Origin: a virus
Taxonomy: Duplodnaviria > Heunggongvirae > Uroviricota > Caudoviricetes
IMG/VR virus record: IMGVR_UViG_2671180577_000005
Reading direction: 5' to 3' (one strand)
Length of the DNA: 4,217 bases
Below the pieces are notes generated by a model, which had not been told where the DNA came from, did not search any database, and saw only the letters and a program-made list of their open reading frames with translations. The translations under genes and the position numbers were made by a program. Positions 92-4,217 of the stretch are shown here, piece by piece (position 1 is the stretch's first letter; every line of letters starts with the position of its first letter).

Positions 92-676
92 TTGTCAGTA
101 CACCTCATTGCTCTGCGTTTTCGGGACTGTGAGTTTGATAATTATCTGGAGGTTAATCCTGACGCAGCCAGAAATCTTGCGGCCTGTCGCCGCTATGCGG
201 AGAACTGGCCAGATATGCTGGAGAACGGTACCAGTCTTGTTATGACCGGCAGTTGCGGTACCGGGAAAAATCATCTGGCGGTATCAATGGCAAAACACAT
301 CATCCGTAACTATCTGGCCAGTGTGGAGATCACCGACGTGATGCGCCTTACCCGGGCTGTGAAAAACTGCTGGCGGAATGACAGTGAAAAAACAGCGGAT
401 GACGTCATTGAGCATTATGCGTCACTGGATTTGCTGATTGTCGACGAAGTCGGCGTTCAGTTTGGCAGTGCGGCTGAAATGGCCATTTTGCAGGAAATTA
501 TCAATGCCCGGTATGAGGGTATTTTGCCAACTATCCTGATCAGCAACCTTTCACCGGAAGAATTGTGGGCGTTCATCAGTCCCCGGATTGCCGACAGGAT
601 CACCGATGGCGGGCGCAACTGGTTGTCGTTTAACTGGCCCAGCTACCGTTCTCGTATCGGAGGTGTTGCCGCATGA
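92..676 (+). CDS. DnaC-like AAA+ helicase loader (phage replication protein); N-terminal domain apparently absent and start codon uncertain
   Basis: Translation has Walker A GSCGTGKN (nt 248-271), Walker B DLLIVDEVG (nt 428-454) and C-terminal FNWPSYRSR, which parallels the E. coli DnaC C-terminus (FNWDSYRSR, recalled from memory). Similarity to DnaC begins only at about DnaC residue 65. The only canonical in-frame start after the stop at 80-82 is TTG at 92, with no convincing Shine-Dalgarno. The stop TGA 674-676 overlaps the ATG of the next gene. Confidence 0.8.
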   Translation: MSVHLIALRFRDCEFDNYLEVNPDAARNLAACRRYAENWPDMLENGTSLVMTGSCGTGKNHLAVSMAKHIIRNYLASVEITDVMRLTRAVKNCWRNDSEKTADDVIEHYASLDLLIVDEVGVQFGSAAEMAILQEIINARYEGILPTILISNLSPEELWAFISPRIADRITDGGRNWLSFNWPSYRSRIGGVAA

Positions 677-2073
677 CCAGCCAGAACACCCCGGCATGGC
701 GTAACGATGACCTGGAAGGCGCTGTCATCGGTGCGTTTTTTCTGCGTGGGGCCGATCCGGAAGTGATGGATATTCTGGCCACACTTCCGGCGGATGTATT
801 TTTTGTGCGTCAGTACCGGGATATTTACGCGGGGATTTGCAGACAGGCTCGCATATCCGGCGTCATTGACCCCGTACTGCTGTGCAATGAGATGCCGGAA
901 CTTGCCCCGGTGATTACCGACACCGGACGCAAAACCTGGGTGAAGTCTTCACTGGAGCACTATGTCGCAGCGTTGCGGCGCAATGCCGCACTGCGCGATG
1001 CAGAAAAAACACTGACTGAAGCATTACAGAATTTACGTGATGCGTATACCTGTGAAGCAGCCGAGGATGCCCTGAAGGATGCGCAGAACATGATGGCCTC
1101 ACTGTCGACCGGAAAGGGCGTCATTCAGCCGGTTCACATTGATGATGTCCTTCCGGAAGTGGTCGACCGTGTTGAATGCCGCAATCAGGGACTGGAGAAA
1201 TCCAGGGCGCTGATGACCGGTATTGATGAACTGGACGCAAAAACGGGCGGTATGGAGCCCGGAGACCTGGTATTCATTGCCGCCCGTCCTTCGATGGGGA
1301 AAACCGAACTTGCGCTGGACATCATCGACAAGGTGACTGAGCAGGGGCATGGCGTGCTTCTGTTCACCATGGAGATGGCGAACATCCAGATTGGTGAACG
1401 TATGGTGTCTGCTGCCGGTGGAATGCCGGTATCCCGTCTTAAGTCTGTTGCCCGTTTTGAAGATGAAGACTGGGCGCGTTTCTCGCAGGGCGTGGGACGA
1501 ATGACGGGGCGTAATATCTGGATGGTGGACCAGGCAAACCTGACCATTGATGAGATATGTGCAACCACGAAGCACCACCGGATGAAACACCCGGAAACGG
1601 CGCTGGTGGTGGTCGATTACCTCGGCCTGATTAAAACCCGCAGCACGGGGCGTCACGACCTTGCGGTGGGGGAAATCTCAAAGGGACTTAAAAGCCTGGC
1701 AAAATCCGGCGGTTTTCCGCTGATTGCTCTGAGCCAGCTCTCCCGCGGCGTGGAATCCAGACCCAATAAACGCCCAATGAACTCGGACCTGAAAAACTCC
1801 GGGGAAATCGAGGCGGATGCCGACATCATTCTGATGCTTTACAGGGATGAGGTATACAACCCGGAAACTCAGGCCAGAGGCATAGCAGAAATCAACATCA
1901 CGAAACAGCGTAATGGCACGCTGGGTACCATTTACCGGCGTTTTCATAACGGGCATTTTCTGCCTGTGGATCAGGAGAGTGCCCGGGTTCTTTCCACACC
2001 CATGACGCCGGGCAATCCGCGCAGATACAGCAATAACCGCATGTCGGGCAGTAAAACGGAGCGTTTATTTTGA
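673..2073 (+). CDS. DnaB-family replicative DNA helicase (phage-encoded)
   Basis: 466-aa ORF with a DnaB-like N-terminal domain (LEGAVIGAFFL...), Walker A ARPSMGKT (nt 1282-1305), and motifs DEDWARF, VVVDYLGL and ALSQLSRGVESRPNKRPMNSDLKNSGEIEADADIILMLYRDEVYN that closely track E. coli DnaB (recalled). SD GGAGG at 659-663 lies 9 nt upstream of ATG 673. ATGA overlap with the upstream gene. Confidence 0.92.
   Translation: MTSQNTPAWRNDDLEGAVIGAFFLRGADPEVMDILATLPADVFFVRQYRDIYAGICRQARISGVIDPVLLCNEMPELAPVITDTGRKTWVKSSLEHYVAALRRNAALRDAEKTLTEALQNLRDAYTCEAAEDALKDAQNMMASLSTGKGVIQPVHIDDVLPEVVDRVECRNQGLEKSRALMTGIDELDAKTGGMEPGDLVFIAARPSMGKTELALDIIDKVTEQGHGVLLFTMEMANIQIGERMVSAAGGMPVSRLKSVARFEDEDWARFSQGVGRMTGRNIWMVDQANLTIDEICATTKHHRMKHPETALVVVDYLGLIKTRSTGRHDLAVGEISKGLKSLAKSGGFPLIALSQLSRGVESRPNKRPMNSDLKNSGEIEADADIILMLYRDEVYNPETQARGIAEINITKQRNGTLGTIYRRFHNGHFLPVDQESARVLSTPMTPGNPRRYSNNRMSGSKTERLF
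1602..1609 (+). other. Chi octamer 5'-GCTGGTGG-3'
   Basis: Exact match on + strand, within the dnaB-like gene (codons ALVV). Confidence 0.9.
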
Positions 2074-2373: not shown

Positions 2374-3369
2374 GTGACCGTGAGAGCACTGCTGACCCCT
2401 GAAATTGCCCCGCGTATGGGGATCGTCTTGTTCAGACCCGGTTCAGAGCTGATGCCCCTGTTTATGCAGGGGCGTGTCCTGCTGGAGCCTGAGCCGGAAC
2501 GTTATTCATCTTTTGCCAGTGGTGCCGTTCCGGCAGCATCACAACCGCTGGCGGATGATCCTGCCGTTCGGGCCGTGTTCCGCCATGAGGCGGTGATCCG
2601 TCGTGCTGGTGGTGTGGAATGCCTTGAGAGCTGGTTACTTCGTGAAAAAGGCTGCCAGTGGCCTCATTCCGGATGGCACAGCGAGAACATGACCACAATG
2701 CGACACGCGCCGGGCGCAATCCGTCTGTGCTGGCACTGCGATAACCTGCTTCGCGATCAGTTCACGGAACGTCTGGAATCAATGGCAACGGATAACTGTG
2801 CCCGCTGGGTGTTGTCCGTAGTCCGTCGTGATCTCGGTTTTGATGACAGCCACGTTGTGACAATGCCGGAACTGTGCTGGTGGCTGGTTCGTAATGACCT
2901 GGCGGATGCCTTACCGGAAAGTGCAGCCCGTAAGGCACTGAGATTACCGAAGCCTGTTGTGCCGTCTGTCACCCGGGAAAGTGACCTTGTGCCTTCGGTT
3001 CCTGCCACCAGCATCATCCGGGATAAGGCGAAAAAGGTGCTGGCGCTGAAAGTGGATCCGGAGTCGCCGGAGTCTTTTATGTTACGCCCCAAACGTCGTC
3101 GCTGGGTTAATGAAAAGTACACGCGCTGGGTTAAGACGCAGCCGTGTGCATGTTGTGGTAAGCCAGCCGACGATCCTCATCACCTGATTGGTCATGGTCA
3201 GGGTGGAATGGGTACAAAAGCGCATGACCTTTTTGTGTTGCCTTTGTGCAGAAAACACCATGACGAACTGCATGCGGATACCGTGGCATTTGAAGAGAAG
3301 TATGGTTCCCAACTGGAGCTGATATTTCGTTTTATCGATCGCGCGCTGGCGATTGGTGTGCTGTCCTGA
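2374..3369 (+). CDS. Cys/His-rich prophage protein with C-terminal YdfU/YbcO-like (DUF968/DUF1364-type) putative zinc-binding, nuclease-like motif; N-terminal domain of unknown function
   Basis: 331-codon ORF; start GTG 2374 or, more likely, GTG 2380 (SD GAGG at 2371-2374). C-terminal motif QPCACCGKPADDPHHLIGHGQGGMGTKAHDLFVLPLCRKHHDELH (nt about 3112-3273) matches my recollection of the Cys/His pattern of E. coli prophage proteins YdfU/YbcO. N-terminal region has C83, C94 and CWHC at 119-122 with several His. Pro/Ser-rich linker at about residues 190-235. Lies between the replication genes and Q, as nin-region genes do. Confidence 0.7.
   Translation: MTVRALLTPEIAPRMGIVLFRPGSELMPLFMQGRVLLEPEPERYSSFASGAVPAASQPLADDPAVRAVFRHEAVIRRAGGVECLESWLLREKGCQWPHSGWHSENMTTMRHAPGAIRLCWHCDNLLRDQFTERLESMATDNCARWVLSVVRRDLGFDDSHVVTMPELCWWLVRNDLADALPESAARKALRLPKPVVPSVTRESDLVPSVPATSIIRDKAKKVLALKVDPESPESFMLRPKRRRWVNEKYTRWVKTQPCACCGKPADDPHHLIGHGQGGMGTKAHDLFVLPLCRKHHDELHADTVAFEEKYGSQLELIFRFIDRALAIGVLS
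2605..2612 (+). other. Chi octamer 5'-GCTGGTGG-3'
   Basis: Exact match on + strand, within the 331-aa ORF (codons RAGGV). Confidence 0.9.
2876..2883 (+). other. Chi octamer 5'-GCTGGTGG-3'
   Basis: Exact match on + strand, within the 331-aa ORF (codons CWWL). Confidence 0.9.
3005..3012 (-). other. Chi octamer on the minus strand (CCACCAGC as read on +)
   Basis: The only reverse-orientation Chi I found by manual scan. Confidence 0.85.
3058..3075. repeat. tandem 9-bp direct repeat CCGGAGTCG / CCGGAGTCT (encodes PES-PES) inside the 331-aa gene
   Basis: Read directly from the sequence: 3058-3066 and 3067-3075 differ at one base. Confidence 0.85.
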
Positions 3370-3386
3370 TTTTGTGGAGAAAGTTG

Positions 3387-3767
3387 ATGCGTGATATTCA
3401 GATGGTTCTTGAACGCTGGGGGGCATGGGCTGCAAGTGGTAACACCGGGGTGGACTATTCTCCGATCGCTGCCGGATTCAAAGGACTTTTACCATCTGCC
3501 ACTAAACCACGTCCGGCCTGCTGCGATGATGACGGACTTATCATTGAAAACTGTCTTGCTCGTCTGAAGCAGAAAAAACCTGAGGAGTATTCGCTTCTCA
3601 TTGCTCATTATTTGTTGCGAATATCAAAAAGACAGATAGCCAGGAAGAGAAAGAAAAGCGAAAAAGCAATACGAATTGAGATGCAGATAGCCGAAGGGTT
3701 TATTGACGGATGTTTGTCTGTGCTGGGGGTAAGACTGGAGATGGACGACTGGCTGCTAAAAAAGTAA
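3387..3767 (+). CDS. late-gene antitermination protein Q (short Q family, QuuD-like)
   Basis: 126-aa product from ATG 3387 with SD GGAG at 3376-3379; the ORF track's 3372 start is an upstream TTG extension. The N-terminus MRDIQMVLERWGAWAA and the CCDDD motif match my recollection of the short antiterminator Q family of E. coli prophages. It is followed by a promoter-like region and a strong intrinsic terminator, as expected for Q/PR'/tR'. Confidence 0.75.
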   Translation: MRDIQMVLERWGAWAASGNTGVDYSPIAAGFKGLLPSATKPRPACCDDDGLIIENCLARLKQKKPEEYSLLIAHYLLRISKRQIARKRKKSEKAIRIEMQIAEGFIDGCLSVLGVRLEMDDWLLKK

Positions 3768-3835
3768 AAAATGATTAGTGCGGTCCGCAAAAAGTATGTC
3801 AGTATGTTAAGAGTGGTTACTTCGCCACACAGCTT
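3768..3835 (+). promoter_or_regulatory. candidate late promoter (PR'-like) and Q-utilisation (qut) region
   Basis: Intergenic, AT-rich, immediately downstream of Q and upstream of the terminator. Tandem -10-like elements TATGTC (3795-3800) and TATGTT (3803-3808) sit within a direct repeat AGTATGT-c-AGTATGT (3794-3808). Possible -35 TGATTA at 3772-3777 (17-bp spacer). Alternative pair TGGACG (3742-3747) and TAAAAA (3765-3770). Exact hexamers and transcription start are not resolvable by eye. Confidence 0.3.
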
Positions 3836-3861
3836 AAACCCGCCGCGAGCGGGTTTTTTTA
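3836..3861 (+). terminator. rho-independent terminator (tR'-like) downstream of Q
   Basis: GC-rich hairpin, arms CCCGC (3839-3843) and GCGGG (3849-3853) around loop CGCGA, followed by a 7-T run (3854-3860). Confidence 0.8.
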
Positions 3862-3891
3862 TGGCTGAAATCGGTCCAGTACAGTAAACGT

Positions 3892-3899
3892 GCTGGTGG
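3892..3899 (+). other. Chi octamer 5'-GCTGGTGG-3'
   Basis: Exact match on + strand, intergenic, just downstream of the tR'-like terminator. Confidence 0.9.
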
Positions 3900-3982
3900 C
3901 GGTGAATACCTGTCTTTCAGCTTGCTGGCTTTTTCGACAAGAGTTATTGGTGTGTCACGTTAACCGAAAAAGGGAAAAAGAC

Positions 3983-4180
3983 ATGCTAAAACAGCAGGAT
4001 ATGACAGAAACCGCCAGAGTGGTGTTTAATGAATTAAGCGTTACCGAACCGGCGACAGTCGGGGAGATAGCGCAGAATACTTACCTTTCACGCGAACGCT
4101 GCCAGTTAATACTGACTCAGCTGGTTATGGCGGGTCTGGCAGACTATCAGTTCGGTTGTTACAGACGCCTTCCGCAGTGA
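3983..4180 (+). CDS. small (65 aa) putative winged-helix DNA-binding protein (PapI/FaeA-like pattern), moron-like gene downstream of Q
   Basis: ATG 3983 with SD AGGGA at 3971-3975 (7-nt spacer). The ORF track's longer version from GTG 3890 lacks an SD and would start inside the terminator-proximal region. Segment TVGEIAQNTYLSRERCQLILTQLVMAGLA has the helix-turn-helix pattern of small wHTH regulators. Its stop overlaps an intrinsic terminator. Confidence 0.5.
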   Translation: MLKQQDMTETARVVFNELSVTEPATVGEIAQNTYLSRERCQLILTQLVMAGLADYQFGCYRRLPQ

Positions 4181-4190
4181 AGGCTTTTTT
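4167..4190 (+). terminator. rho-independent terminator after the small wHTH ORF
   Basis: Arms GCCTTC (4167-4172) and GAAGGC (4179-4184) around loop CGCAGT, followed by a 6-T run (4185-4190). The stop codon TGA 4178-4180 lies within the stem-loop. Confidence 0.7.
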
Positions 4191-4208
4191 ATTTGTGGTA
4201 AATGGGCG

Positions 4209-4216
4209 GCTGGTGG
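4209..4216 (+). other. Chi octamer 5'-GCTGGTGG-3'
   Basis: Exact match on + strand, intergenic, after the second terminator at the window edge. Confidence 0.9.
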
Positions 4217-4217
4217 G

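Follow-up and report, generated by a model that had tools for sequence, protein, structure and literature searches.

In phage Mu and in Mu-like prophages with the methyltransferases hin1523 and nma1821, a gene for a small protein of about 60 amino acids (aa) lies directly upstream of a late gene for a DNA-modification enzyme that is toxic to the host. In Mu-like prophages the gene after com is mom or that of a non-specific adenine methyltransferase, and Com of Mu is a translational activator of the toxic mom gene (PMC3299994). M.EcoGII, a methyltransferase of 349 aa, modifies adenine in any sequence context, harms the cell if its expression is constitutive and is not made in the lysogen, and phage 1720a-02 has been named as carrying a very similar enzyme (PMC5778455). 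In restriction-modification systems, a small controller (C) protein of the helix-turn-helix (HTH) type has its gene directly ahead of that of a potentially lethal DNA enzyme, and the two genes share a transcript, which serves to time expression. In the StxS and IsrK loci, the late promoter PR' is constitutive and its transcript is terminated at tR' (PMC7547250, PMC4825925). Here a gene for a 65-aa winged-helix protein is described, which lies downstream of the antiterminator gene Q in a stretch of 4,217 nucleotides (nt) of Caudoviricetes DNA (IMG/VR virus record IMGVR_UViG_2671180577_000005; the whole stretch is referred to as the window). This gene is the upstream half of a fixed cassette whose other parts are a structured leader RNA and a methyltransferase gene. 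Its product is tentatively interpreted, with somewhat less than even confidence, as a dedicated control factor of the toxic methyltransferase that would act through the intervening element by a logic like that of Com and Mom.

The locus and com-mom have in common an enzyme that shields progeny DNA against restriction, an RNA structure near the start of the enzyme gene, and silence in the lysogen (PMC3299994, PMC5778455). It differs in that com overlaps its enzyme gene, whereas the winged-helix gene lies upstream of a 135-nt three-way-junction RNA; in that Com is a CxxC...CxxC zinc ribbon, whereas the present protein is a winged helix with only two cysteines; and in that the enzyme is not Mom but an M.EcoGII-type beta-class methyltransferase, for which a Com-like partner is hypothesised here. 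C proteins act as Xre-type HTH dimers on palindromic C-boxes, and the gene under their control is that of an endonuclease; in contrast, the present locus has no endonuclease, no Xre-type Pfam match and no C-box-like palindrome in the leader motif upstream of the small gene. With the antQ-isrK-orf45-anrP locus of Gifsy-1 and with StxS of Shiga toxin (Stx) phages it shares the position directly after Q and probably the control of the first open reading frames (ORFs) by a terminated PR' transcript and read-through (PMC4825925, PMC7547250), but the ORFs are not homologous, and the leader from PR' to the terminator would here be only about 50 nt long and need not act in trans.

Linkage to the methyltransferase gene

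The downstream context was taken from relatives because the window ends 37 nt past the stop codon of the small gene. In an E. coli chromosome that is 99.6% identical, a gene for a DNA methyltransferase of 349 aa begins 150 nt past the ORF and is followed by tRNA-Ile, tRNA-Arg, tRNA-Arg, a SASA/NanS-type esterase gene and lastly the genes of a class II holin and a lysozyme. The Stx2a phage Stx2_14040 has the same order with stx2AB between the tRNAs and the esterase gene, and the gene order in phiP27 (Stx2e) is similar. In SfV, cdtI and mEp460 the lysis genes come directly after the methyltransferase gene. The first-pass annotation, made from the window alone, had placed the small gene at the junction between Q and the lysis genes and proposed a check whether these follow immediately downstream. 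This placement is not supported, as the methyltransferase gene, the tRNAs, stx2AB where present and the esterase gene precede the holin gene in the 99.6%-identical loci. The methyltransferase belongs to the beta class of N6/N4 enzymes and is 93% identical to that of phage 1720a-02, through which it is assigned by sequence, at the level of the family, to the non-specific adenine methyltransferases of the M.EcoGII type.

A first scan with the methyltransferase gave near-identical loci only. Linkage was counted over all fetched loci with enough upstream flank, and the small gene ended 138-179 nt (median 150) before the methyltransferase gene in 97 of the 97 loci with an enzyme that shares 70% identity or more with that of the window clade (78/78 at 90% identity or more, 19/19 at 70-90%). 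When one genome per species was taken, the methyltransferase gene started about 340-355 nt past the ATG of the small gene in 30 of 32 loci, the two exceptions being a contig end and a truncated, degraded copy. These species-level loci include Escherichia, Kluyvera, Salmonella, Klebsiella, Citrobacter, Buttiauxella, Proteus, Providencia, Mangrovibacter and Plesiomonas. The cassette stands behind at least three unrelated types of Q, namely the 126-aa PF06530 type, a type of about 250 aa in SfV and mEp460, and one of 225-259 aa in Morganella and Providencia phages, and its linkage holds where other genes have entered downstream of Q and ahead of the cassette, as with L22 in phiP27, a pair of reverse-strand genes in cdtI and mEp460_051 in mEp460. 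Within the enzyme clade of the window the linkage is obligate and independent of the type of Q.

These counts bear on the first-pass description of the gene as moron-like. As independent accessory cargo it would be an exclusion, anti-defence or host-directed factor that merely travels beside the methyltransferase gene. Two good terminators bracket the gene in the window clade, and the whole cassette is mobile, recombining beside different Q genes and different cargo (stx2, tRNAs or lysis genes directly), as cargo would. An autonomous moron would not be expected to stay with the methyltransferase gene in every one of the 97 close loci; moreover, no promoter was found for it and the second terminator is not conserved, so that independent cargo is a very improbable explanation. 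The interval between Q and the terminator, rather than the slot of the winged-helix gene, looks like a variable insertion site of the moron type in phiP27 (L22, L003:3734-4963), cdtI (orf53/54 on the reverse strand, L005:1834-3222) and mEp460 (mEp460_051, L006:2861-3277).

The leader RNA

The small gene and the methyltransferase gene are separated by about 150 nt, which hold an RNA of about 135 nt. This interval surpasses the coding sequence in conservation and is near-identical from E. coli to Morganella phages. RNAalifold applied to the enterobacterial subset gave a three-way junction plus further hairpins, in which P1 (UGGGC/GCCCA) is invariant and P2 and P3 covary, with compensatory changes in 13 of 25 pairs. 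The hairpins are flanked by the conserved single-stranded blocks AAUGGGCG, AACCnAGGCCCA and GAGCCUA, and their arms differ wholly between phages with the pairing kept. On a MAFFT alignment of all diverse leaders RNAalifold recovered only the invariant P1, since the hairpin arms were misaligned; a covariance model (R1) was built from the enterobacterial subset as a remedy and the leaders were realigned with it. The model matches the end of the window, where the match is truncated at its 3' side, and scores 130-150 bits over its full length in homologous loci. Of 100 diverse loci, 74 contain the RNA by this model, in every case on the + strand with the enzyme gene directly after it, and the entire SfV genome contains it only once. 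In the model-guided alignment, which was itself fitted to the covariance model, 91% of the cells are paired as against 26-38% with slid partners, double (compensatory) changes occur in 19 of the 25 pairs, and none of 500 shuffles reached any of the observed measures. No family of Rfam 15 matched the RNA in the five loci searched.

The RNA is found upstream of M.EcoGII-family genes in lambdoid, N15-like and Vibrio/Aeromonas phages, and precedes homologous methyltransferase genes in N15, phiKO2, PhiR46_1 and Vibrio phage VHML with no winged-helix ORF intervening. The methyltransferase AUG has no well-spaced Shine-Dalgarno sequence and is preceded by a covarying hairpin that includes the GAG purines. 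Single-sequence folds offer the 5' segment AUGGGCG two partners, GGCCCAU at the distal side and, nearer, C(C/U)CAU close behind P2, which hints at a possible switch. Two further observations concern this region. A GATC (Dam) site abuts the start codon of the methyltransferase gene (TGATCYATG; L002:6620-6634 and homologues, just past the window); the enterobacterial clade keeps it without change, and loci of the N15 and Vibrio types lack it. One viral contig (L099:1039-1211) carries an insertion of about 30 nt in hairpin P2 and may hold a disrupted copy.

Conservation of the small protein

The small gene is present in 2141 of 5426 complete E. coli genomes (about 39%), with up to seven copies per genome. 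A total of 334 homologues were found in Escherichia, Shigella, Salmonella, Klebsiella, Citrobacter and Buttiauxella, with at least 80% identity among the top 120, and most of them have been called at 63-65 aa. The protein matches PHROG 331, a group of unknown function, with an E-value of 1e-37. A library scan of 1.84 billion representative proteins gave only 61 relatives, many of them frameshifted, and no distant annotated one. The family is narrow and confined to prophages of Enterobacterales. Currently its members are annotated as hypothetical or loosely as TrmB family.

The ratio of nonsynonymous to synonymous substitution rates (dN/dS) between pairs of 12 Enterobacteriaceae copies has a median of 0.078, with dS saturated. 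The residues M1-L2 are invariant and the frame upstream of them is closed in other genera, which indicates that the 65-aa start is right and that the annotated versions of 96-106 aa are wrong. Conservation is highest at the N-terminus, MLKQxDMT, and in helix 3 with RCQLILTQL-x-x-AGL; L44, T45, Q46 and G51 are invariant down to 41-50% overall identity. Within helix 3 the stretch C40-Q-L-I-L-T-Q is the most conserved segment of all, and a basic pair in the wing is mostly conserved. In a Morganella homologue, helix 3 is preserved through many synonymous changes. That the ORF is a real gene, conserved in related prophages, is borne out by this distribution and by the strong purifying selection. 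The first-pass view of its position directly downstream of Q and a tR'-like terminator also holds.

Selection on the protein has to be set against the explanation that the gene is a leader ORF, whose translation, with the ribosome ending 8-21 nt before P1, would remodel the RNA, the protein being secondary. The stop codon does lie within a conserved hairpin 20-24 nt before the AAUGGGCG strand of P1 (8-10 nt in Morganellaceae phages), the two alternative partners of the 5' segment AUGGGCG appear in minimum-free-energy folds, and a precedent exists in orf45 of the Gifsy-1 isrK locus, downstream of antQ (PMC4825925). However, the low dN/dS on amino acids, the retention of helix 3 by synonymous changes in Morganella and the confidently predicted fold show that the protein itself is under selection. 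A pure leader ORF is the least probable of the explanations considered, with hardly any weight given to it, and translational coupling could be an added layer.

Fold and family membership

The AlphaFold2 model of the protein has a predicted local distance difference test (pLDDT) score of 86 and shows a single domain of three helices and a beta hairpin (H1-H2-H3-b2-b3). Foldseek aligned it with template modelling (TM) scores of 0.70-0.79 to winged-helix domains of O-methyltransferases, IclR regulators and SelB, the best matches being the N-terminal winged-helix dimerisation domains of methyltransferases that depend on S-adenosylmethionine (SAM). At the level of the superfamily, a winged-helix fold is predicted with confidence, in agreement with the first-pass reading of the sequence. 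The families then proposed for profile and structure searches (PapI/FaeA, MarR or other winged-helix families) did not hold: no family of Pfam, NCBIfam or PADLOC exceeded its threshold, and a profile search of the sequences of the Protein Data Bank gave nothing meaningful.

TrmB proteins consist of an N-terminal winged helix and a C-terminal sugar-sensing domain. The present protein, to which NCBI gives this name, is a single domain of 65 aa without an NCBIfam match and scores 18.0 bits against PF01978, below the cut-off of 25.6. Of the MarR profiles (PF12802/PF01047), MarR_2 gave 14.7 bits against a cut-off of 27, and the protein lacks the flanking helices of the dimers of about 140 aa. For PapI/FaeA/PefI (PF04703) there was no FaeA match and no match to solved chains, and the locus is the late region of a lambdoid prophage, not a fimbrial operon with Lrp and GATC control sites. 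Members of the Z-alpha family, which bind Z-DNA or Z-RNA, have a conserved Asn and Tyr in helix 3 and a Trp in the wing, and these key residues are missing. Membership in Mu Com (PF10122) was also rejected, as there is no profile match and only two cysteines are present; the protein is proposed to work like Com, not to be a member of its family.

The structural matches to methyltransferase dimerisation domains are among the points that would fit a role in contact with a protein or with N6-methyladenine (m6A) in DNA, either as a partner that modulates or targets the methyltransferase or as a reader or shield of heavily modified DNA, by which progeny DNA or the dying host would escape methyl-adenine-dependent type IV restriction (Mrr, winged-helix-nuclease fusions). 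Such a role would also agree with the obligate co-occurrence with a hyper-methylating enzyme and with the acidic to neutral isoelectric point (pI), which suits protein binding; prokaryotic winged-helix domains can sense m6A, and DNA modified by M.EcoGII is cut by type IV nucleases fused to winged helices (PMC11037411). Yet the more distant methyltransferase homologues do without the small gene, the protein resembles in sequence neither the m6A-sensing domains of the DpnI type nor a chain of solved structure, and it matched no defence or anti-defence family (PADLOC, E 0.0035 only). We consider this role quite unlikely.

Terminators, promoter and expression

The Q protein of the window covers the whole profile of Pfam PF06530 Phage_antitermQ (E 5.5e-53) and belongs to PHROG 79 ('anti-termination protein Q-like'). 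The order of Q, terminator T1 and small gene on the + strand (Table 1) is the same in all related loci. A terminator is located about 100-125 nt before the ORF in nearly all of them, the Morganella and Providencia copies differing in sequence. No sigma70-type promoter was found by a promoter scan of positions 3300-4217. At the homologous place SfV has TTGCAT-N17-TAAGAT and then a pause-like hexamer AACGAT ahead of the homologous terminator. In phiP27 this place reads TTGCGG-N17-TATCCT, and the shared sequence GTTAAGAGTGG comes immediately after; by their sequence these are credible promoters at the place equivalent to PR'. A promoter of non-consensus or activator-dependent type may also serve the small gene. 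The interval 3770-3862 corresponds in position to the short PR'-tR' RNAs IsrK and StxS, and a terminated leader RNA of about 50 nt may form in lysogens. As an Rfam family, isrK was rejected over this interval (18 bits against a threshold of 50), as were Trp leader, isrJ and P26 in the window and five related loci; all of these were sub-threshold and driven by the terminators.

Since no sigma70 consensus promoter was found and a tR'-like terminator stands behind Q, read-through by Q is the most economical way in which the small gene would be expressed, and expression would be late. In Morganellaceae phages the stop codon of the small gene is 8-10 nt from the leader RNA and no terminator separates it from the enzyme gene, so that the two genes would be co-transcribed; constitutive expression of the small gene is unlikely because the same transcription would there reach the toxic enzyme gene. 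The first-pass annotation had likewise noted a good Shine-Dalgarno sequence, two bracketing terminators, the lack of a sigma70 promoter of its own and expression by Q read-through. The first three stand for the window, and Q read-through is probable, the Morganellaceae layout adding support to it.

The same annotation described a terminator of the gene's own that overlaps the stop codon. This is correct for the window clade and does not extend to the family. The stop-codon hairpin covaries across Enterobacteriaceae, where a proper U-tract is found only in the E. coli clade of the window and the hairpin is elsewhere trailed by CUUUCUG-type tails only. In phages of Proteus, Providencia and Morganella both the hairpin and the U-tract are absent. 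As the U-tract is degenerate in other Enterobacteriaceae and the hairpin is missing in Morganellaceae phages, T2 appears to be a clade-specific reinforcement rather than a defining feature.

Between T1 and the ORF, every gene-carrying locus (18-20 loci, Escherichia to Plesiomonas) has a leader motif (Table 1) whose spacing does not vary; a single copy is present in the SfV genome. The motif does not match the sigma70 consensus, as TTGCTG-N17-TAYNTG has a G where an invariant -7 T is expected, and it was rejected as the operator of a regulon, as SfV has only one copy. Pairing of the motif with codons 4-6 of the ORF (RNAfold z = -3.1) was also dismissed; conservation extends to the motif but not to its partner CAGCARG. 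The motif could serve in autoregulation, as a promoter of non-consensus type or as a signal in the RNA.

If the motif were an autoregulatory site, the small protein could be a classical DNA-binding transcription factor that controls the cassette, or other phage or host genes, in the manner of a C protein of restriction-modification systems. The second candidate site would be the 12-bp inverted repeat of P2, GGCTGGTGGGTG-N7-CACCCACCAGCC. The leader motif, however, lacks clear dyad symmetry and its single occurrence in SfV leaves no regulon, and the arms of P2 change by G-U-compatible or compensatory substitutions and differ wholly in related phages, which fits RNA pairing and not a fixed operator. 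The protein matches no transcription-factor family of Pfam at threshold, and is small and mostly acidic with no obvious dimerisation element. On this evidence a DNA-binding regulator is rather doubtful, although it deserves consideration.

Relatives with other small genes

In Vibrio-type loci (L120-L136), an ORF of 36-48 aa with a CxxC...CxxC pattern lies between the leader RNA and the methyltransferase gene. One of these ORFs passes Zn_ribbon_Com (PF10122) with 24.6 bits against a cut-off of 22.9, the others reaching about 16 bits. With com-mom and such Com-like ORFs among relatives of the enzyme family, control of a promiscuous DNA-modifying enzyme by a small protein has a precedent.

Protein gp51 of N15 and phiKO2, of 75 aa and annotated as a winged helix, aligned by hhalign to the profile of the present family with a probability of 86% (E 5e-6) and is a probable distant homologue on sequence grounds. 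Its gene adjoins the same arrangement of terminator, leader RNA and methyltransferase gene, but it lies just before a putative late promoter, which places it in the preceding transcription unit. This suggests that the association of winged helix and methyltransferase may predate the lambdoid arrangement. The position of gp51 is that of Q in lambda. A 98-aa ORF before the late promoter in Vibrio-type loci was rejected as a homologue (hhalign probability 4%).

A possible mechanism and the evidence that weighs on it

If the small protein controls the methyltransferase, the following course would be expected. Transcription would start at PR' just after Q and stop at T1 in the lysogen. Q would make RNA polymerase resistant to terminators, so that the small gene is reached as the first late cistron and, in the window clade, T2 is passed as well. 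The winged-helix protein would be made first, from the same transcript as the methyltransferase, and would act on the conserved element between the two genes, most likely the leader RNA. Translation of the methyltransferase would then be licensed only at high late transcription, and leaky read-through at tR' would yield no active enzyme, as in the logic of com-mom. In its most specific form, the protein would be an RNA-binding translational licensing factor for this undescribed leader RNA, and the two together a new safety switch resembling Com and Mom; stated so narrowly, the proposal is unlikely.

Helix 3 and the wing, where conservation is concentrated, are the parts with which winged helices contact nucleic acid, and this supports a role of the protein as a control factor that acts on the intervening element. 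The same role is favoured by the constant linkage, by an enzyme family with a member that harms the cell when constitutive, by the covarying leader RNA, by the weak ribosome-binding site of the methyltransferase gene, by com-mom and the Com-like ORFs of Vibrio-type loci, and by the terminator-free layout of Morganellaceae phages. Several observations weigh against it. At lower enzyme identity the linkage falls away: between 60% and 70% the small gene is present in no more than 6 of 32 loci, and under 60% in 6 of 54. The leader RNA and the methyltransferase gene occur together without the winged-helix gene (for example in loci L156, L157, L159 and L181), so that the RNA does not need the protein. 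SfV and cdtI have identical RNA and enzyme, and their winged-helix proteins are only about 53% identical. Covariation between protein variants and RNA variants could not be shown, and an exclusive tie of the gene to one sequence or loop type in P2 was rejected, as the same loop occurs in L159 and L195, which lack the gene, and in Providencia the gene is found together with other arms. The pI is mostly 4.8-6.5 in the family, from acidic to neutral, which is unusual for a nucleic-acid binder. The structural matches are to generic winged helices and do not discriminate between binding of RNA, DNA or protein. Finally, PR' was not located by consensus in 3768-3835.

Layout of the window and other features

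The features of the window and of homologous loci are listed in Table 1. No tRNAs were found in the window by ARAGORN. The DUF968/HNH gene lies directly 5' of Q, and the same position is kept in many related phages.

Table 1. Coordinates of features in the window and, with locus prefix, in related loci; all genes of the window lie on the + strand
Feature	Position	Strand	Remarks
DnaC/IstB-like loader	92-676	+	
DnaB-type helicase	673-2073	+	
Coiled-coil ORF		+	85 aa; between DnaB-type helicase and DUF968/HNH gene
DUF968/HNH protein	2374-3369	+	331 aa; YdfU-type; C-terminal HNH-like region; PHROG 96 'HNH endonuclease'
Antiterminator Q gene	3387-3767	+	126 aa from ATG at 3387; directly 5' of the small-gene unit
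Presumed PR' late-promoter region and start of short leader transcript	3768-3835	+	Placed by analogy; promoter itself not located
Intrinsic terminator T1, read as tR'	3836-3860	+	8-bp stem with 5 GC pairs (3836-3856); U-run to 3860
Chi site GCTGGTGG in leader	3892-3899	+	Kept in E. coli-type leaders
Leader motif CTTGCTG-N11-MAGAGTTAYNTGTRTG	3921-3954	+	Invariant core, fixed spacing
Shine-Dalgarno sequence AGGGA	3971-3975	+	7 nt ahead of ATG; read from sequence
65-aa winged-helix protein gene	3983-4180	+	Between two intrinsic terminators
Terminator T2, stop-codon hairpin and U-tract	4167-4194	+	6-bp GC-rich stem, U6; overlaps stop codon
Leader RNA, first 20 nt	4198-4217	+	P1 5' strand UGGGC at 4203-4207; P2 start; cut by window end
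Chi site overlapping P2 start	4209-4216	+	
Full leader RNA copies	L002:6499-6635; L197:34029-34165; L034:2370-2504; L118:1057-1193		L197 is the SfV genome
Com-like ORFs	L120:1037-1162; L125:1025-1141; L127:1031-1141		Also in related Vibrio-type loci; followed by a hairpin spanning their stop codon
gp51 genes	L033:2006-2233; L034:2003-2230		N15 gene 51; phiKO2 gp51

Chi sites (GCTGGTGG) are frequent in the window, occurring at 1602, 2252, 2605, 2876, 3892 and 4209 on the + strand and at 3005 on the - strand. This makes seven in 4217 nt, six of them on the + strand, where 0.16 are expected, and none of 200 shuffles reached seven. The whole SfV genome has 22 where 1.4 are expected; most of these lie on the + strand, and they cluster in the early-right and late-leader regions. 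RecBCD that comes in from the right genome end recognises sites in the + orientation. The winged-helix ORF is flanked by two Chi sites.

Significance

The gene has already been catalogued as an abundant hypothetical protein; what appears to be new is its partnership with the methyltransferase and the leader RNA. A literature search found no description of the constant partnership or of the structured leader RNA. The cassette ties this small protein to an enzyme of practical and biological importance, as M.EcoGII serves as a tool for footprinting and methylation and in nature would give phage DNA broad protection against restriction. It offers a concrete system for the study of how a toxic enzyme is silenced and then switched on, with two terminators, a covarying RNA and a small protein in the place where Mu-like systems use Com. 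Phages of the types Stx2a, Stx2c, Stx2d and Stx2e have the cassette downstream of Q and ahead of stx2, and its terminators and RNA therefore stand on the path of late transcription to the toxin genes. If the proposed control is true, a licensing switch would keep a genome-wide methylase off until late transcription is fully committed, and in Stx2 phages this switch, together with T2, would lie between Q and stx2.

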